Of a DNA stretch of 32,000 bases, positions 3-29,860 are shown one piece after another. The DNA lies in assembly GCF_001548275.1 (NCBI RefSeq), contig NZ_AP014945.1, positions 810,001 to 842,000 on the forward strand. The letters run 5' to 3'. The position numbers and the translations under genes were made by a program. A model generated the notes under the pieces. It did no database searches. It was not told the origin of the DNA and saw only the letters and a list, made by a program, of their open reading frames with translations. The stretch's first letter is position 1. Every line of letters starts with the position of its first letter. The DNA is from Caldimicrobium thiodismutans (GTDB lineage Bacteria; Desulfobacterota; Thermodesulfobacteria; Thermodesulfobacteriales; Thermodesulfobacteriaceae).

Positions 3-398
3 TCCCTTGCCGAACTTATTAAGGCCTTAGAAAGATTTCCCCGAGTTAAAAAGGGTAGACACACTATTGAATACACACTTATTAAAGGGATAAATGACTC
101 TCTAAGAGAGGCTGCTTCACTTGCTAAGCTATTAAAGGGGTTTCCAGTAAAAGTTAATCTTATCCCCTATAATCCCCATCCTGATCTTCCCTTTGAAAGA
201 CCTGATGAATCGGCAGTTGAGAGATTTCAGAAGTATTTACTTTCAGAGGGCATTTTAACCACAGTCCGAAAAAGCAAAGGGCTTAAAATCTCAGCGGCTT
301 GTGGCCAGTTAAGGGGAAAGCTTCTGAAAAAATCCTATTTCCAGACCCCAGCAATAGAAAAGCCACACTTAGGACAAAGCCCATCTTCCTTAAGTTGA
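3..398 (+). CDS. rlmN: Radical-SAM rRNA/tRNA m2A methyltransferase RlmN, C-terminal fragment (5' end lies outside the window)
   Basis: Frame 3 is open from the window edge to TGA at 396-398. Translation ...HTIEYTLIKGINDS...VNLIPYNPHPDLPFERP...RFQKYLLSEGILTTVRKSKGLKISAACGQLRGK matches the conserved RlmN/Cfr C-terminus with the AACGQL motif. It is absent from the ORF track because no start codon lies in the window. Its last 64 nt overlap the convergent gene at 335-1354. Confidence 0.8.
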   Translation, partial: SLAELIKALERFPRVKKGRHTIEYTLIKGINDSLREAASLAKLLKGFPVKVNLIPYNPHPDLPFERPDESAVERFQKYLLSEGILTTVRKSKGLKISAACGQLRGKLLKKSYFQTPAIEKPHLGQSPSSLS

Positions 399-1354
399 TT
401 GGAGATAATAGCAAAGCCATATCTTTCAATTAGAAGGGTTGAACACTTAGGGCAGAAGGTATTTTCTGTCTCGTTACCAGGGACATTTCCGATGTAAACA
501 AAATATAAACCCTCTTCTTTACCAATGTAATAGGCCCTCTGTAGAGTTTCAATAGAGGTATAGGGTTTATTTTGCATCTTGAACTGGGGATAAAAACGGG
601 AGATGTGCCAGGGGGTCTCAGGGCCAAGTTCATCTCTTATAAATCGGGCTATATCTCTCAACTCTTCTGAACTATCATTTTCCTCAGGAATGACAAGGGT
701 AGTAATCTCAACCCAGATACCAAGTTTTTTAAGATACTTAAGGTTATCCAAGATGGGTTTTAATTTGGCTTTACATATGCGATGATAAAATCCTTCTGTA
801 AAGGCCTTTAAATCCACATTTATGCCATGCAGATAGTCCTTAATGAGATCTAAGGCAGACTTGGTCATATATCCATTGGAGACAAAGACATTTTTAAGCC
901 CCTCTTTGACTGCTAATTTAGAGCAATCTAAGGCATACTCAAAATAAATAGTAGGCTCTGTATAAGTGTAAGATATGCTTTTACATCCATGATTAAGGGC
1001 CTTTTTCACAATATCCTTTGGAGAGTAAGGTGTCCCTGGAATTGAGCCGGGATAAAGATGGGGAAATTGAGAAATTTCAAAGTTCTGACAAAAGGAACAT
1101 CTAAAATTACAACCAACAGTAGCTATGGAATAGGAATAGGATCCTGGTAAAAAGTGATAAAGGGGCTTCTTTTCTATAGGATCAATATGTTCAGCAATGA
1201 CGCGACCATAAACTAAGGAGTAAAGGATACCCTCTTCATTTTTTCTAACTCCACAAAGCCCTGTTTTGCCATTAGGGATAAGGCATTGATGATTGCAAAG
1301 ATAACAACGAACCTTTTTATCCTCTAAGGACTCATATAATAAAGCCTCCTTCAT
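335..1354 (-). CDS. AmmeMemoRadiSam-system-type radical SAM enzyme (AmrS / pyruvate-formate-lyase-activase-like)
   Basis: 339-aa ORF. It has an N-terminal Cys cluster (VRCYLCNHQCLIPNGKTGLCGVR), the radical-SAM motif GCNFRCSFCQN (CxxxCxxC) and C-terminal CPKC...CPKCG. This layout is typical of the AmmeMemoRadiSam radical SAM family. Confidence 0.75.
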   Translation of the reverse strand: MKEALLYESLEDKKVRCYLCNHQCLIPNGKTGLCGVRKNEEGILYSLVYGRVIAEHIDPIEKKPLYHFLPGSYSYSIATVGCNFRCSFCQNFEISQFPHLYPGSIPGTPYSPKDIVKKALNHGCKSISYTYTEPTIYFEYALDCSKLAVKEGLKNVFVSNGYMTKSALDLIKDYLHGINVDLKAFTEGFYHRICKAKLKPILDNLKYLKKLGIWVEITTLVIPEENDSSEELRDIARFIRDELGPETPWHISRFYPQFKMQNKPYTSIETLQRAYYIGKEEGLYFVYIGNVPGNETENTFCPKCSTLLIERYGFAIISNQLKEDGLCPKCGFSIAGVWK

Positions 1355-1562: not shown

Positions 1563-3206
1563 ATGCTCCTTGAGCTTAAAATCACCAATTTTGTCCTGAT
1601 TGAAGAGGCTCACTTAAGCTTTGATAAGGGGCTCACTATCTTTACAGGAGAGACGGGAGCTGGAAAATCTCTTCTTATTAAGGCACTAAAGGTGCTCTTA
1701 GGTGATAAAGGAGCTGGAGGACATCTTAAACCCGAGACAGAGACCTCTGAGGTCTCTGCCCTCTTCTACGGTGGCCCTTATCTTTCTGCCAAATTAAAAG
1801 AGCTGGGATACCCAGCAGAAGAGGAGATTCATATCAAAAGAATTATTTCACCTCAGAGGCAGAGGAGTTTTCTTAACGGCTCTCCCATATCCACTCTTGA
1901 ACTTAGCCAAATCACCCGGGACCTTATTTCTCTTACCAGTCAGCATGAATACTACACCTTTTTACGCCGAGAAAATCAACTTAAGTTTGTTGATGAGCTC
2001 CTTAGCCTAAAGGAAAAACTTAGGGCCTACCAGAATCTTTACTTACAGTATAGGGAACTTGAAAAAGAGATTAAGGATCTGGAGGAAAAGGTCTCCCAGG
2101 TCATGCTAAAAAAAGATTATCTTCTCTTTCAGATCTCAGAACTTGAGGAATTAAATCCTGATCCTGAGGAAGAAGAGACCCTCAAAATTAAAAGAGAAAG
2201 ACTGAGGCACATGCAACTTATCCAGGAACTTTCCGCAGGCCTAAGGATATCCTTAGATTCTGCAAAGGACAATCTAACTCAAGCGTTAACCCTTCTTTCA
2301 AAACTTACGCCTTTTGAGCCCTCTTTCAAAGAGAGACAACACCTATTACAGGATCTTTACTACGAAATATCTGAGCTTGAAAGGGATCTTAAGGTTCTGG
2401 AGGGAGATCTCCTGGAGAATCCCTCTGAACTTGAACAAATTGAAGCCCGGCTTGCAAGATATGAAAGACTTAAGAAAAAATATGGTAAAGATGCACAGGG
2501 GCTAAAAAACCTGAAAGAGGAGCTAAAGGTTGAACTGGAGCTTCTCGATTCTGGTGAAGAAGAATTAAAAAAACTCCTCAGAGAAAAGGAAAAACTTGAA
2601 CAGGAACTTTTAAATCTTGCCCTAAACTTAAGGGAGGAGAGACAAAAAGGTAAGGGAAAGATTGAAGATCTTATTAAAAAAGAGCTTAAAGACCTGGGTA
2701 TGGAAAAAGTGGAATTTGAAATTAAAATAACCCCCAAGGAAATTGCCCCTCAAAATCTTACTTCCACTGGTCTTGATGAGATTGAATTTCTCTTTTCACC
2801 TAATCCCGGGCTTGCCCTTAGACCCTTAGAAAAGATTGCTTCAGGAGGGGAGCTTTCCCGTATCTTTTTATCCTTTAAAACCCTTCTTAGGGAAAGAGAG
2901 CCTGTGGGCACCCTTATCTTTGATGAGGTTGATGCTGGAATTGGTGGCCCAACCGCCTTGCAAGTAGGTAAAAAGTTAAAAGAACTATCTAAAGGTCTTC
3001 AGGTGCTCTGTATCACCCATCTTCCTCAGATTGCCTGTTTTGCAGATCACCATTTTTTAGTGGAGAAACACTCTACGCAAGAGGAAACAACCACCTTTAT
3101 TAAAAGATTGAATGAAAGAGAACGCCTTCAAGAGCTTGCAAGAATGCTTGGGGATAAGGATAACCTTGAGCTTGCCCGCAGCTTTCTTGAAGGGCTAAAT
3201 TTCTAA
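1563..3206 (+). CDS. recN: DNA repair protein RecN (SMC-like ATPase)
   Basis: 547 aa. N-terminal Walker A in FTGETGAGKSLLIKAL, a long Glu/Lys/Leu coiled-coil middle, the C-terminal signature ASGGELSRIFLS and Walker B LIFDEVDAGIGG. Confidence 0.9.
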   Translation: MLLELKITNFVLIEEAHLSFDKGLTIFTGETGAGKSLLIKALKVLLGDKGAGGHLKPETETSEVSALFYGGPYLSAKLKELGYPAEEEIHIKRIISPQRQRSFLNGSPISTLELSQITRDLISLTSQHEYYTFLRRENQLKFVDELLSLKEKLRAYQNLYLQYRELEKEIKDLEEKVSQVMLKKDYLLFQISELEELNPDPEEEETLKIKRERLRHMQLIQELSAGLRISLDSAKDNLTQALTLLSKLTPFEPSFKERQHLLQDLYYEISELERDLKVLEGDLLENPSELEQIEARLARYERLKKKYGKDAQGLKNLKEELKVELELLDSGEEELKKLLREKEKLEQELLNLALNLREERQKGKGKIEDLIKKELKDLGMEKVEFEIKITPKEIAPQNLTSTGLDEIEFLFSPNPGLALRPLEKIASGGELSRIFLSFKTLLREREPVGTLIFDEVDAGIGGPTALQVGKKLKELSKGLQVLCITHLPQIACFADHHFLVEKHSTQEETTTFIKRLNERERLQELARMLGDKDNLELARSFLEGLNF

Positions 3207-3207
3207 T

Positions 3208-4137
3208 ATGCCCAGAGCCTTGCTTCTCTTTTCAGAAGGACTTGATAGCACTTTATGTGCCCTCATTCTCAAAAGGGAAGGGATTGAGGTAATAGTTCTG
3301 CGTTTTATTACCCCTTTTTTTGGCTGGAAATATAAAGATTCTCCCCATCTCTTTGAGGAAAAGATTAAGGCCCTTGGCCTTCCTGCTGGTAGAGTGGTAG
3401 ATATTACTGAAGAATACCTTGAAATACTTAAAAAACCAGCCTTTGGCTACGGAGATTATGCTAATCCTTGTATAGATTGTAAAATTTTTTTTCTAAAAAA
3501 GGCTAAAGATTTGATGCAAGAGTTGCAAGCGGATTTTCTTGTAAGTGGTGAGGTCCTTGGTCAAAGGCCTATGAGTCAGAACAGGGTAATTTTAGAAAAA
3601 ATTGAAAGAGAAGCAGGGGTGGAGGGATTGCTTTTAAGACCCCTCTCTGCAAAACTTCTAAAGGAAACAGAACCTGAAAAAAGGGGACTCCTATCCAGAG
3701 AAAAACTTTATGGCCATTCTGGAAGAAAAAGAGATTTCCAGCTGGAACTTGCAAAAGCCTTTGAGCTTAAAGAGATACCTACTCCGGCTGGAGGGTGTCT
3801 TCTTGCAGATCCAATTATCGGAAGCCGTATCTTACGGGTCCTGAAAGAAAAAAAACCGCTTAACCCCCTCACAGCCGAACTCCTCACCTTTGGAAGACAC
3901 CATTTTGATGGCGACCTTTGGGCAGTCCTTGGAAGAAATGAAAAGGAAAATCTGCGGTTAGAAAGGGTGATTGCAGGAAGGCTTCCTCTTTATACTCTAA
4001 GTGAGCCAGCTCCCAATCTTGCTGTGATTTGTGGACCTATAGATGAGGAGAATATAAAGAACTTACTGATAAACTATTCTAAAAAGGCCCAACTTAAGCT
4101 CCAGAGGGGAGAAAGAGTTGAGCTTATTGCAAAGTAA
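3208..4137 (+). CDS. PP-loop superfamily ATP pyrophosphatase (ThiI/MnmA-like tRNA thiolation-type enzyme), degenerate PP-loop
   Basis: 309 aa. The N-terminal LLLFSEGLDSTL occupies the SGGxDS PP-loop position. NPCIDCKIFFLKKAKDLM resembles the Cys-containing segment of tRNA thiolation PP-loop enzymes. The start lies 1 nt after the recN stop. Confidence 0.55.
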   Translation: MPRALLLFSEGLDSTLCALILKREGIEVIVLRFITPFFGWKYKDSPHLFEEKIKALGLPAGRVVDITEEYLEILKKPAFGYGDYANPCIDCKIFFLKKAKDLMQELQADFLVSGEVLGQRPMSQNRVILEKIEREAGVEGLLLRPLSAKLLKETEPEKRGLLSREKLYGHSGRKRDFQLELAKAFELKEIPTPAGGCLLADPIIGSRILRVLKEKKPLNPLTAELLTFGRHHFDGDLWAVLGRNEKENLRLERVIAGRLPLYTLSEPAPNLAVICGPIDEENIKNLLINYSKKAQLKLQRGERVELIAK

Positions 4138-7627: not shown

Positions 7628-7655
7628 TTGAAATCCCTATAAATTCCGGCAAAAT
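7628..7655 (+). promoter_or_regulatory. Promoter of the decayed Rpn copy (duplicate of 28686-28713)
   Basis: TTGAAA (7628-7633), 16-nt spacer, CAAAAT (7650-7655), 6 nt, ATG at 7662. Near-identical to the promoter of the intact copy. Confidence 0.45.
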
Positions 7656-7661
7656 ACCTCT

Positions 7662-8341
7662 ATGCCAAAGAAGAAACCTCCTGTTCCCTATGACCTTTTT
7701 GCCAAGGCCTTCCTCAAAGACCCTGAAAACTTAAAAGGCTTCCTCTCAACCTTCCTCCCTGATCACATTAAAACTCATCTTGACCTTGACTCCCTTATAA
7801 AATTATCCCGGAAGAGCAAGTTTCTCTTTCTCCCTGTTTTCCCCTTGTGTTTTATGAAGGGAAATAAGCCCTGGGTGTATCCTGAAAGGATAGAGGAGAT
7901 ATTTTCAGTGCCAGAGGGGTTAAAGGGAGAACTTTTTAAGGTTCATGTGGTTGATTTAAAGAGGGTGGAGGATGAGAAGATATTGAGGGTATTTGATATT
8001 TTAGCAGGGCTTGGGTGTTATCTTTATTTAATAAAGGCGGAATCAAGGGATTTTGAAAGATGGAGTTAAAGAGCTTTTGGGATAGAGTGGGAGAGAAGTT
8101 TTATAAGCAGGGAATTGAGCAGGGAATTGAGCAAGGAATTGAGCAGGGGAAATATCAGGGGTTAATTGAGGAGGCAAGGGAGCTTGTGCTTGAGGCCATA
8201 GAGGTGAAGCTTGGGTATGTGCCGGAGGAAGTGAGGGAGAGGGTGGTAAGGGAGGAAGATAGAGGAGTTCTTAAGGAGTGGCATAGAAAAATAATCCTTG
8301 CAAAGAGCTCTGAAGATATCTTTAAACTCTTTGAAAATTGA
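7662..8341 (+). pseudogene. Decayed Rpn/YhgA-like (PD-(D/E)XK, Transposase_31 family) gene with internal deletions
   Basis: Direct repeat of 28720-29754. It lacks ~190 nt (junction near 7830), which removes the catalytic core, and 166 nt (junction 8057/8058). It also carries small indels. The result is two ORFs, 7662-8069 and 8060-8341. Confidence 0.85.
8060..8341 (+). CDS. Intact 93-aa C-terminal Rpn-derived ORF (possible stand-alone RpnS-like small protein)
   Basis: 282 nt, collinear with 29473-29754 and without any indel. 16 codon differences, 11 of them synonymous. The ATG overlaps the end of the upstream remnant ORF by 10 nt. Expression is not demonstrated. Confidence 0.4.
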   Translation: MELKSFWDRVGEKFYKQGIEQGIEQGIEQGKYQGLIEEARELVLEAIEVKLGYVPEEVRERVVREEDRGVLKEWHRKIILAKSSEDIFKLFEN

Positions 8342-8614
8342 TATTATTTAATCTTTCTTGCTTCTTTTTCTTCTATAAGCTTAGGTAAAATTATTCCCAA
8401 ATCAATTGATTCTATTATTTGCGGATTTAAAATCTGTGTTATAAAATATTTTCCTAAAAAGCAATGTTTAGTAATAAAATATTACGAACATATTATCCAT
8501 AACGAGCAGGGAGGACGGACGGGAAGCATTATATTTTGTATAAAAAAATAATCTACATTACCTGCCAAAAAAAGCATGTTTAAATCTCAAAAAATCGGGA
8601 CTTATACACCCCCC

Positions 8615-8654: not shown

Positions 8655-8739
8655 GCCGAGGTGGCGGAACTGGTAGACGCGCTGTCTTGAGGGGGCAGTG
8701 GGCCCCGTGCCTGTGCGGGTTCGAGTCCCGCCCTCGGCA
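8655..8739 (+). tRNA. tRNA-Leu (anticodon GAG)
   Basis: Manual fold: acceptor GCCGAGG/CCTCGGC, anticodon stem CTGTC/GGCAG with loop TTGAGGG, long variable arm, T arm GCGGG-TTCGAGT-CCCGC, discriminator A. No encoded CCA. Confidence 0.9.
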
Positions 8740-27238: not shown

Positions 27239-28552
27239 TTATCCATTTTCTGGCACCTGGTCAATTCCCAAAATTTGTTCTGGCTCCTTAAGATTGTAAG
27301 CCCGGAAGTTCATTTTTCTGAGCTTAAGGGTAAAAAGATAACTTAGCCTTCCAGAATAACAGAAGAAAAGAAGATTTTTTTCTCTAAAGGGGCGAAAGGT
27401 TTTAAAAAGGTCTTTTTCATTTTCCAGAAGAGAAGGCGATATCCATTTTGCAGAGGGCAAAGTGCCTTTAAGGTAATCCTCCTTTTCCCGAACATCAAAG
27501 ACCATCCATTTTTGTCTTTCGGAAGACTCTTCAATTTTTTGCCACTTAGCAAGGGATAACTCAAGAGTTTTATCTTCAATTCTTGAGAGAAGATTTACCC
27601 TCCGACAAAAGCCACAGATTCCATGGACAGAAGCTGTAGGTTCTCCGCAAACCTTACAGGGAACTAAGGTGCTCTCTTCAAAGTTTTCTCTTAAAAGGGG
27701 AATAAATCCCTTTAAAAAGACTGAAAGGAGTTGGTATTTAAAGGTGCGATTTTCTTTTTCTAACTCTTCCAGAATTCCCTTTATTTTTTTTGAAGGGGTA
27801 ATTTCACCATGGGGGCAGGCACATCCTTCAAGAGGAAGCTCATTTAATACCGCATAAAAAAATATCTCCCTTTCTGGAATTTGATAAAGGGGTTTAATTT
27901 TTTTAGCTTGGCCCTCAAAGAGGGGGAGATTAACTGGAACAAGTCTTTTGATGGAGATAAAATCTCCATTAAAAAAGAGGGTAAGATAGGTAGAAAGGAG
28001 ATCGTCTAAATGATGCCCTGTAGCAATTACGGTTAAACCAAGTTCTCTGGCAACCTTGGAAAAAAGATATCTCTTGATTGTGCCACAAACTGAACAGATT
28101 TTATCTTTAAAGGAGGTAAAGACAAAATCATCTATGGAAAAGCCTTTTTCCGCCTTAAGGTCATAGACAAATAGAGGGATAGATAGGCTTTCACAGAGTT
28201 CTTCAACGGCTTTTTGAGCAAAGTCAGAATAATATCTTATACCAAGATTGAGATAAAGGCCTTGAAAAGAAATTTCTGGAAAGGTTTTTTTAAGTAGATG
28301 AGCCAAGGTTGCACTATCCTTTCCCCCTGAAAGGAGAATCCCTACCCTATCCTCAGGCCCAAACATCCTGTATTTTTTAACAGCCTCGCTGAGTCTTCTT
28401 TGCTGAATTTTACTGAAGCAGTTTTTGCAAAGTTTAAGATTCTGAGTAGTGAGGGTAACTACAGGCACCTCAGACTTACATAATTTGCAGAGCTTACCAA
28501 GAGGTTTTATTTCAAATTCAAATTTTTCTGCACCACACTTGAGATACTGCAT
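27239..28552 (-). CDS. TtuA/NcsA-like tRNA 2-thiolation PP-loop ATPase fused to a C-terminal rhodanese domain
   Basis: 437 aa. N-terminal zinc finger CKLC...CKNC, PP-loop LLSGGKDS, Fe-S Cys candidates CSVCG and GCACPHG, ATGHHLDD, C-terminal zinc finger CKVCG...CGFC. Residues ~340-430 are rhodanese-like with active-site loop FFCYSGRLS. Confidence 0.75.
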   Translation of the reverse strand: MQYLKCGAEKFEFEIKPLGKLCKLCKSEVPVVTLTTQNLKLCKNCFSKIQQRRLSEAVKKYRMFGPEDRVGILLSGGKDSATLAHLLKKTFPEISFQGLYLNLGIRYYSDFAQKAVEELCESLSIPLFVYDLKAEKGFSIDDFVFTSFKDKICSVCGTIKRYLFSKVARELGLTVIATGHHLDDLLSTYLTLFFNGDFISIKRLVPVNLPLFEGQAKKIKPLYQIPEREIFFYAVLNELPLEGCACPHGEITPSKKIKGILEELEKENRTFKYQLLSVFLKGFIPLLRENFEESTLVPCKVCGEPTASVHGICGFCRRVNLLSRIEDKTLELSLAKWQKIEESSERQKWMVFDVREKEDYLKGTLPSAKWISPSLLENEKDLFKTFRPFREKNLLFFCYSGRLSYLFTLKLRKMNFRAYNLKEPEQILGIDQVPENG

Positions 28553-28587: not shown

Positions 28588-28685
28588 TAGATTTTGAAGA
28601 AAACTTCCATCCTGCATAAGTTCACATTCTTTTTATCTGCAAAATAGGCAGATTTAAGTCTAAAAATATGGAGGCATACACTCTA

Positions 28686-28713
28686 TTGAAATCCCTCTAA
28701 ATTCTGGCAAAAT
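28686..28713 (+). promoter_or_regulatory. Sigma-70-type promoter of the intact Rpn gene, leaderless layout
   Basis: TTGAAA (28686-28691), 16-nt spacer, CAAAAT (28708-28713), 6 nt, ATG at 28720. No SD. The upstream box lies at 28659-28673. Confidence 0.45.
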
Positions 28714-28719
28714 ACCTCT

Positions 28720-29754
28720 ATGTCAAAGAAGAAACCTCCTGTTCCCTATGACCTTTTTGCCAAGGCCTTCCTCAAAGACCCTGAAAACTTAAAAGCCTTC
28801 CTCTCAACCTTCCTCCCTGAGCACATTAAAACTCATCTTGACCTTGACTCCCTTAAAATCATCCCTGAAGAACAGGTTTCCCTTTCAAGAAAAAAGCGAG
28901 AAATCCCAGATCTTGTTGCAGAGGTTAATCTCCTTAGTGAAGGTAAACCTTCAACCAAAGCCCATCTCTACATCCTTATTGAGCACAAAAGTGCACCTGA
29001 TAAAAGAATTTACCTTCAGATTTTAAATTACATAACCGCTTTAAATGAGAGGTCTTTCAAGGAGGGGAAGGGGTATGTGCCTGTTTTACCTCTTGTGTTT
29101 TATGAAGGGGATAAGCCCTGGGGCTATCCTGAAAGGATAGAGGAGATATTTTCAGTGCCAGAGGGGTTAAAGGGAGAACTTTTTAAGGTTCATGTGGTAG
29201 ATTTAAAGAGGGTAGAGGATGAGAAGATATTGAGGGTATTTGATATTTTAGCAGGGCTTGGGTGTTATCTTTATTTAATGAAGGCGGAATCACTGGATTT
29301 TGAAGAGATAATTGAAGTTATTACAAGGGCGACAGAGAGATTAGTAGCAATAGGGGAGAAAGGAAGATGGGAGATGGGATTTTTGATTAGGATATCTGAA
29401 ATAAAGTTCAGGGTTGACGGGGAGGTAATCTGGTTTAATATATTAGATAGTTGTGAAGAAGAGGGGGTAAAGATGGAGTTAAAGAGCTTTTGGGATAAAG
29501 TGGGAGAGAAGTTTTATAAGCAGGGAATTGAGCAGGGAATTAAGCAAGGGATTGAGCAGGGGAAATATCAGGGGTTAATTGAGGATGCAAGGGAGCTTGT
29601 GCTTGAGGCGATAGAGGTGAAGCTTGGGTATGTGCCGGAGGAAGTAAGGGAGAGGGTGGTAAGAGAAGAGGATAGAGGAGTTCTCAAGGAGTGGCTGAGG
29701 AAAATAATTCTTGCCAAAGGTTCTGAAGATATCTTTAAACTCTTTGAAAATTGA
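28720..29754 (+). CDS. Rpn/YhgA-like recombination-promoting nuclease (PD-(D/E)XK; Transposase_31 family, often annotated as a putative transposase)
   Basis: 344 aa. YDLFAKAFLKDPENLKAFL, PDLVAEV...LYILIEHKSAPDKRIYLQILNY and LPLVFYEGDKPWGYP parallel E. coli YhgA/RpnA (VLIEHQS.PDKHMAFRL..Y; PVLFYHG). C-terminal GIEQGIKQGIEQG repeats are typical of the family. Confidence 0.85.
   Translation: MSKKKPPVPYDLFAKAFLKDPENLKAFLSTFLPEHIKTHLDLDSLKIIPEEQVSLSRKKREIPDLVAEVNLLSEGKPSTKAHLYILIEHKSAPDKRIYLQILNYITALNERSFKEGKGYVPVLPLVFYEGDKPWGYPERIEEIFSVPEGLKGELFKVHVVDLKRVEDEKILRVFDILAGLGCYLYLMKAESLDFEEIIEVITRATERLVAIGEKGRWEMGFLIRISEIKFRVDGEVIWFNILDSCEEEGVKMELKSFWDKVGEKFYKQGIEQGIKQGIEQGKYQGLIEDARELVLEAIEVKLGYVPEEVRERVVREEDRGVLKEWLRKIILAKGSEDIFKLFEN
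29473..29754 (+). CDS. Candidate internal in-frame product of the Rpn gene (93 aa, RpnS-like)
   Basis: In-frame ATG (Met252) preceded by GAGGGGG (29461-29467) at 5-nt spacing. The same 93-codon ORF survives intact in the decayed copy at 8060-8341. Confidence 0.4.
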   Translation: MELKSFWDKVGEKFYKQGIEQGIKQGIEQGKYQGLIEDARELVLEAIEVKLGYVPEEVRERVVREEDRGVLKEWLRKIILAKGSEDIFKLFEN

Positions 29755-29860
29755 TAATTTGTAAGCTTTCTTGTATTCTTTTCTGCTATAAGCATAGTCA
29801 AAAATTCCTTTTAAAAAAAATCCTCTTTAAGTTGTAAAAAATATGGATGCATGCATGCCC

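Follow-up and report, generated by a model that had tools for sequence, protein, structure and literature searches.

A compact rpn unit in Caldimicrobium thiodismutans predicted to encode a nuclease and its small inhibitor in one reading frame

The 32,000-nucleotide (nt) stretch of the Caldimicrobium thiodismutans genome analysed here, hereafter the window, carries a compact rpn unit that probably encodes two proteins in one reading frame, namely the nuclease RpnL and a small C-terminal protein, RpnS, which is predicted to inhibit it. A probability of about 0.78 is assigned to this reading. The rpn genes of E. coli have an internal start from which a small C-terminal protein, RpnS, is made, as well as an internal transcription start, and RpnS binds and blocks the toxic full-length nuclease (Zhong et al., 2023, PNAS, PMC10400941). 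The Caldimicrobium gene is a further example of this system and not a new kind. That the two proteins would be translated separately and form a complex, that RpnL would be toxic, and that the pair might have any phage-defence role are inferences. An earlier interpretation of the same DNA (the sequence-only reading) had proposed that a distant homologue keeps the E. coli intragenic layout, and its account of the E. coli system agrees with Zhong et al. (2023). The present analysis supports that proposal: the 93-amino-acid internal ORF is confirmed, and the internal Shine-Dalgarno (SD) element and start before it are conserved in relatives. To these it adds four-residue repeats of varying number, a promoter-like site inside the gene and copies of RpnS that stand free.

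The RpnL open reading frame (ORF) of the window is identical to THC_0837 of Caldimicrobium thiodismutans, a hot-spring thermophile of the Thermodesulfobacteriota, and existing sources label it either 'hypothetical protein' or 'Transposase (putative) YhgA'. As the sequence-only reading had assigned it, THC_0837 belongs to the Rpn/YhgA-like nuclease family (PF04754, TIGR01784, COG5464). In profile searches, it matches PF04754 at 99.4 bits against a cutoff of 21 (E 2.6e-28); with TIGR01784 ('Rpn family recombination-promoting nuclease/putative transposase') it scores 72.4 bits, where 52.1 is the cutoff. The catalytic residues are intact, with D64 and E88 invariant in an alignment of 19 homologues. 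Furthermore, the N-terminus is collinear with E. coli RpnA from residue 1, with 29 % identity over 177 residues (E 3e-17; MSKKKPPVPYDLF against MSKKQSSTPHDAL), and the catalytic region falls inside this alignment. Since the RpnA alignment begins at residue 1, 28720 is the true start of the ORF; the gene had earlier been given a span from 28686, which is the position of a -35-like box and not of the ORF start, while the ORF itself, ending at 29754, is real. Judged by family and catalytic residues, THC_0837 is an intact Rpn nuclease gene.

The predicted start of RpnS is the in-frame ATG at 29473 (Met252). It follows the SD-like string GAGGGGGT, which forms eight pairs with the anti-SD, two of them G-U. 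The reading of GAGGGGG at 29461-67, with a 5-nt spacing to this ATG and a 93-amino-acid product, proved correct. It had also been called the best SD-like element in the gene, and it does rank first at -11.8 kcal/mol, but narrowly, as AAGGAGGGG (window 29059-29079), 9 nt before an in-frame GTG at 29077 (V120), reaches -11.4. In an AlphaFold model of the protein (predicted local distance difference test, pLDDT, 75) there is a break at residues 245-247, then a long helix (248-302) that includes a low-confidence repeat region, and then three short helices. The break before the long helix would place Met252 at a domain boundary.

Conservation is the evidence that carries the internal start. Of the 25 related loci that a genome scan returned, most come from Caldimicrobium and from Thermodesulfobacteriaceae metagenome-assembled genomes (MAGs); two further full-length copies, with 89-90 % DNA identity to the window gene, were obtained by exact look-ups. 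When in-frame starts with an anti-SD duplex of -9 or better were mapped onto a protein alignment of 13 full-length copies, the site at residues 250-252 was the only SD-preceded in-frame start occupied in every one of them. An SD-preceded ATG or GTG lies within two codons of the 29473 position in all 13 full-length and all 4 partial Thermodesulfobacteriaceae relatives. The sequence-only reading had made its proposal depend on conservation of the internal ATG and SD among orthologues, and on this point it holds. Further afield, three of four Planctomycetota homologues (24-28 % identity) have an SD (GAGGAGG, GGAGGA or GGGAGGTG) and an ATG placed 8-12 residues before the repeats described below, and in 12 of 12 distant protein homologues a Met stands about 8-20 residues before the repeats.

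The way in which the site is conserved is also informative. In copies of 38-49 % identity, the start lies two codons upstream of the window Met and is GTG at 10 and ATG at 4 of 14 loci; as a background for this GTG/ATG fixation, GTG makes up 53 % of the Val codons of those genes. The start in these copies follows GGGGGTGA or GGAGGTGA (-13.6 to -14.7 kcal/mol), and the second of the Gly codons, the one before the start, is always GGT, which gives GGTGA, as against an 18 % usage of that codon. The string AGAGGGGGT / GGAGGTGA is conserved in every relative. AGAGGGGGT is common to the window and to the related locus L001 in different codon phases (gaA GAG GGG GTa versus AGA GGG GGT), so that the residues it encodes differ (EEGV versus RGGE). 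Because the string is kept across a shift of codon phase with different residues, selection acts on the RNA motif and not on the peptide. A sliding profile of synonymous conservation gave 0.85 upstream of the internal start versus 0.66 overall; it is dominated by close paralogues and was not relied on.

Two other in-frame sites were noticed in the gene. The GTG at 29077 (V120) was rejected as an internal start, being kept only in the closest clade (3/13) with Ile elsewhere; the N-terminally truncated paralogues THC_0388 and THC_1337 are annotated as beginning at V120. There is also an in-frame GTG at 29632 (V305) after GAGGTGAAG (window 29615-29634), from which a 40-amino-acid peptide would be read, with an equivalent SD-preceded start in 10 of the 13 relatives. 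This site may simply reflect the conserved IEVKLGxVP peptide.

The four-residue repeats provide a second line of evidence. In E. coli, the RpnS repeat, located in the long first helix, begins 8-20 residues after the Met; it differs in copy number from strain to strain and determines the specificity of pairing (PMC10400941). The QGIE/QGIK repeat of the window gene begins 16 residues after Met252, inside this published range. Relative to the window, the copies with 89-90 % identical DNA carry clean 24- and 36-nt deletions in the repeat, and the number of repeat units per homologue runs from 0 to about 12. In the MAG of Caldimicrobium sp. SKYB6, at least six full-length rpn copies (L003, L005, L008-L011) each have a different repeat number or type (QQGL, QQGI, RLEG). 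These differing repeats fit a private antitoxin specificity for each copy.

In addition to the internal ORF, RpnS-type proteins are encoded on their own. A search with the 93-amino-acid part returned many free-standing proteins of 78-130 amino acids with the same layout, some of which are assigned to Pfam DUF4351, a family that Zhong et al. equate with separate RpnS genes (PMC10400941). The RpnS profile aligns with these small proteins, DUF4351 members included, at 99.5 % in hhalign (E 1.7e-22). The relation to DUF4351 is visible profile-to-profile only, through small proteins carrying PF14261, and a Pfam search with the 93-amino-acid part itself gave only a sub-threshold Yae1_N repeat match. 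Two free-standing ORFs (P0027 and P0028) have been called elsewhere by gene callers from exactly MELKSFWD.

Decayed copies of the gene show which part is retained. A second rpn copy in the window sits between trmD and tRNA-Leu(GAG) (8655-8739), and one of its two deletions removed the internal promoter-like site and SD. Its free-standing small ORF is intact and out of frame with THC_0810 and overlaps the THC_0810 stop (ATGGAGTTAA); it is unannotated, as it is not in the protein collection. Compared with the main copy, the ratio of nonsynonymous to synonymous change (pN/pS) of this ORF is 0.11. The same remnant occurs at the same locus in MAG GCA_017880035.1 (L029, P0028) with one repeat fewer and a pN/pS of 0.09. 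Another copy in that MAG, L028, has a frameshift that ends RpnL at 230 amino acids and leaves the internal promoter-like site, SD and ATG intact, together with an intact small ORF of 101 amino acids with extra repeats. Similarly, THC_0388 and THC_1337, known as protein sequences from the same genome as THC_0837, lack the first 119 codons and keep the tail. The orphan RpnS copies of THC_0388 and of the window remnant have the same repeat length as THC_0837. Such one-sided decay, in which the nuclease part goes and the small ORF stays, is what a toxin/antitoxin pair would be expected to show. Early stops or frameshifts that spoil the nuclease part are also seen in the rpn copies L006 (~2929-3123) and L022 (~2983-3288) of Caldimicrobium sp. 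SKYB93.

The two predicted products also appear to differ in how their synthesis would begin. Upstream of the internal start, TTGACG-16-TAnnnT is found in 14 of 15 sequences (L012 has TTGACT), even though the -10 codons encode different residues. The ATG of rpnL, as had been pointed out before, has no SD (the anti-SD duplex is only -1.5 kcal/mol) and follows a -10-like box: CAAAAT (28708-13) ends exactly 6 nt ahead of it and is paired by the scan with TTGAAA (28686) and a TG. The layout of a -35 box, a 16-17-nt spacer, a -10 box (TAAAAT, TATACT or CAAAAT), 6 nt and the ATG, with no SD, is present in 11 of 11 clade members and also in the close copies. The rpnL start thus appears to have the promoter geometry of a leaderless gene, conserved in the clade, and a leaderless mRNA is predicted.

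Two side observations belong to this subject. The -10 box is separated from the rpnL ATG by 6 nt (28714-28719 and the orthologue equivalents) that are always pyrimidine-rich and anti-SD-like (ACCTCT, TCCTCT or TCCTTT); these could act as a promoter discriminator or pair with the internal SD in read-through transcripts. Elsewhere in the window, the minus-strand ORFs 335..1354 (start 1354) and 27239..28552 (start 28552) have no SD, and exactly 6 nt separate a TAnnnT hexamer from their ATG (TAAAAT-GAAAAT-ATG and TAAGTT-TGTATT-ATG). Leaderless mRNAs may be common in Caldimicrobium thiodismutans. The features of the locus, and those of the decayed copy, are collected in Table 1.

Table 1. Positions in the window of the rpn unit, its elements and the decayed rpn copy
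Feature	Position	Strand	Description
Promoter-like site, full-length gene	28686..28713	+	TTGAAA, 16 nt, (TG)CAAAAT; promoter scan
rpnL ORF (THC_0837)	28720..29754	+	344 codons/amino acids, 39.9 kDa; Rpn/YhgA-like PD-(D/E)XK nuclease
Catalytic core	28909..28989	+	D64 (28909-11) to E88-H-K90 (28981-89); read from sequence
Internal promoter-like site	29414..29441	+	TTGACG-16-TAATAT; scan; ~25-nt leader to internal ATG predicted
Shine-Dalgarno-like GAGGGGGT	29461..29468	+	4 nt ahead of internal ATG; anti-SD duplex -11.8 kcal/mol
rpnS, in-frame internal ORF, putative antitoxin	29473..29754	+	from Met252; 93 amino acids, 10.9 kDa
12-nt tandem repeats	29521..29568	+	QGIE-QGIK-QGIE-QGKY; TRF: period 12, 3.6 copies
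Imperfect ~28-nt direct repeat, possibly up to ~40 nt	28653..28680 (left), 29826-29855 (right)		flanks rpn unit
Second, decayed rpn copy	7628..8397	+	promoter and first ~55 codons kept; catalytic core and stretch equivalent to 29310-29468 deleted
THC_0810	7662..8069	+	135-amino-acid ORF within remnant; upstream ORF of decayed copy
Free-standing rpnS-type ORF in remnant	8060..8341	+	93 amino acids; starts at Met252-equivalent ATG

Taken as a toxin/antitoxin unit, the locus would work as follows. RpnL would be a DNA endonuclease of the PD-(D/E)XK type, harmful when unopposed, in which a middle domain made of helices leads to a long C-terminal helix and then to a small bundle of helices. RpnS would be the C-terminal part alone, translated from the internal ATG by means of its own SD, probably from a short transcript of its own that begins at the internal promoter-like site, and it would be made in excess over RpnL. 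By analogy with E. coli RpnA, RpnB, RpnC and RpnP2, RpnS may bind RpnL through the long helix that both share and so block DNA cleavage. The number of four-residue repeats would decide the fit between RpnS and RpnL, so that each copy would have its private antitoxin. Translation of RpnL from a leaderless mRNA would make its synthesis weak or condition-dependent and keep the toxin low compared with an SD-driven antitoxin. A wider and rather doubtful extension of this model is that the two modes of initiation set the toxin/antitoxin ratio in this thermophilic clade, that decayed rpn copies persist as orphan RpnS genes which buffer the single intact nuclease, and that the unit may insert with a target duplication of ~28-40 nt.

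Several observations weigh against the toxin/antitoxin reading. Searched with the full THC_0837 sequence, the PDB gave no related entry, and the top Foldseek matches of the full-length AlphaFold model are restriction-endonuclease-like and all non-significant; neither search gave a structural match to the solved RpnA-S. That protein is a three-helix bundle of 49 amino acids resembling a helix-turn-helix, unlike the DUF4351-like tail of 93 amino acids with a KLGxVPEE motif found here, and PF14261 (DUF4351) gives no match to residues 252-344 or to the remnant ORF even at E 10. A phage-defence role finds no backing in the gene context: PADLOC returned no relevant match, and no association with a defence island was found, the neighbours being of housekeeping type (genes for a PhoU-like protein, a PP-loop/rhodanese tRNA-modification-type enzyme, a TPR protein and a class IV aminotransferase). 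Promoter-like matches in the window scan are not enriched over shuffles, so that the case for the internal promoter-like site is made by conservation only. About 40 % of the window's long ORFs likewise have no SD, so its absence from the rpnL start is not unusual in this genome. Moreover, gene conversion from intact copies could contribute to the low pN/pS of the remnants.

If only one protein were made, the internal ATG and the G-rich string before it would be by-products of Glu/Gly/Lys-rich, purine-rich coding. The 3' two-thirds of the gene are indeed 65 % purine with SD-like strings common, the gene holds five of the ten strongest SD-preceded internal starts among the window's ORFs, and two of the four internal in-frame starts that reach -11, out of 252 in the window's long ORFs, are in it. 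The V120 site is nearly as strong as that at Met252, and it and the V305 site are also partly conserved. Given the purine-rich gene and this background, the site at 29473 is suggestive and not compelling on a single sequence; its conservation in relatives lifts it above chance. Only the 250-252 site is present throughout the full-length copies, synonymous choices around it are fixed (GTG or ATG; GGT), its SD is kept across a codon-phase shift, and the free-standing ORFs in decayed copies start at exactly the Met252 equivalent, all of which makes a single product improbable. It is unlikely, too, that the small protein is made and serves as a required subunit or regulator, or as a DNA-binding or oligomerisation module, instead of an inhibitor. 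Complementary gene-within-gene cases such as Cas11d for Cas10d are cited by Zhong et al. (PMC10400941), the present tail resembles DUF4351 and exceeds RpnA-S in length, and in MAG GCA_017880035.1 the repeat numbers of orphan RpnS copies mismatch that of the intact copy. Against such a role, the five E. coli systems tested and the plasmid-borne RpnP2 all behave as toxin/antitoxin pairs (PMC10400941), and decayed copies drop the nuclease core and keep RpnS, which is unexpected of an obligate complex.

The 'putative transposase' label, or an ISNCY-type annotation, raises the further question of whether the unit is primarily a mobile element with its own transposase. Copies of the rpn gene are present several times per genome at unrelated loci, and the part shared with close copies runs from ~28680 to ~29808, a unit of ~1.1 kb made up of promoter, ORF and short tail. 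In the syntenic metagenome contigs L038 and L039 the aminotransferase, TPR and PP-loop genes follow one another with no rpn between them, and the sequence of the imperfect direct repeat that flanks the window unit is single-copy there (~3700-4000). The support for this repeat is marginal, with a score of 31 where the best of 300 shuffles reached 28. It looks like a target duplication when the sequences are compared; published work describes rpn genes as lacking one. Flanking direct repeats are borderline at both window copies and not significant at three others (L026, L027 and L028). A self-mobilising transposase is nevertheless very improbable, as the unit lacks terminal inverted repeats, the protein reaches 47 bits with the ISNCY model NF007418, whose cutoff is 583, and PD-(D/E)XK proteins are not known as autonomous transposases. 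The close copies L026 and L027 (4961-6026; 89-90 % identical DNA) stand just after rpoC-rpsO in two assemblies; different genes follow downstream in each, which puts the gene at a synteny breakpoint. The left flank of L027 resembles the 3' end of the rpn unit (TGAAAAT..ATAAATTT), a resemblance that hints at a former tandem copy.

A nuclease paired with an inhibitory RpnS from the same frame would extend the gene-within-gene toxin/antitoxin principle of 2023 to a deep-branching thermophile. The internal start is recognisable from conservation alone, through the alternation of ATG and GTG, synonymous codons that do not vary and an SD that persists when the codon phase changes. These criteria could be used by annotation pipelines, which at present call such a gene 'hypothetical' or a 'putative transposase' and overlook the small ORFs. 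The leaderless-type start of the toxin gene and the orphan RpnS remnants provide testable ideas on how a toxin/antitoxin ratio is set, and a target duplication, if true, would be relevant to the way in which rpn genes move. To our knowledge, the structure of an RpnL-RpnS complex has not been solved; should both proteins be as stable to heat as is expected from their host, they could lend themselves to structural work on it.

The closest known relatives of the system are the gene-within-gene toxin/antitoxin systems of E. coli RpnA-E and plasmid RpnP2, and the PD-(D/E)XK N-terminus of THC_0837 is collinear with that of RpnA. As in E. coli rpnA, where AAGGAG stands 6 nt before the ATG of M244, an in-frame internal SD and ATG precede the C-terminal tail; a promoter-like site likewise lies inside the gene, and a four-residue repeat of varying copy number stands in what is modelled as the first long helix. 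In contrast, E. coli rpnA has GAAGGA before its full-length ATG, whereas the Caldimicrobium gene relies on no SD there and has a -10 box 6 nt upstream. Furthermore, the present host is a thermophilic member of the Thermodesulfobacteriota. The RpnE-YpaA arrangement (RpnSs) and the free-standing DUF4351 (PF14261) proteins are similar in that a separate small ORF corresponds to the RpnS part, and the ORF at 8060..8341, P0027 and P0028 all begin at the same Met. Unlike these, the free-standing copies described here come from whole rpn copies that decayed by deletion or frameshift of the nuclease part; they do not go back to duplication of a small gene that follows an intact rpn, and the Pfam DUF4351 model does not match the Caldimicrobium RpnS directly. 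Clostridioides difficile Rpn, which has been expressed in E. coli (PMC10400941), belongs to another lineage, and the Caldimicrobium evidence is by comparison only. It nevertheless resembles the present gene as a non-enterobacterial rpn gene with a predicted ribosome-binding site and internal start that yields a small protein, and its repeats vary within the species.

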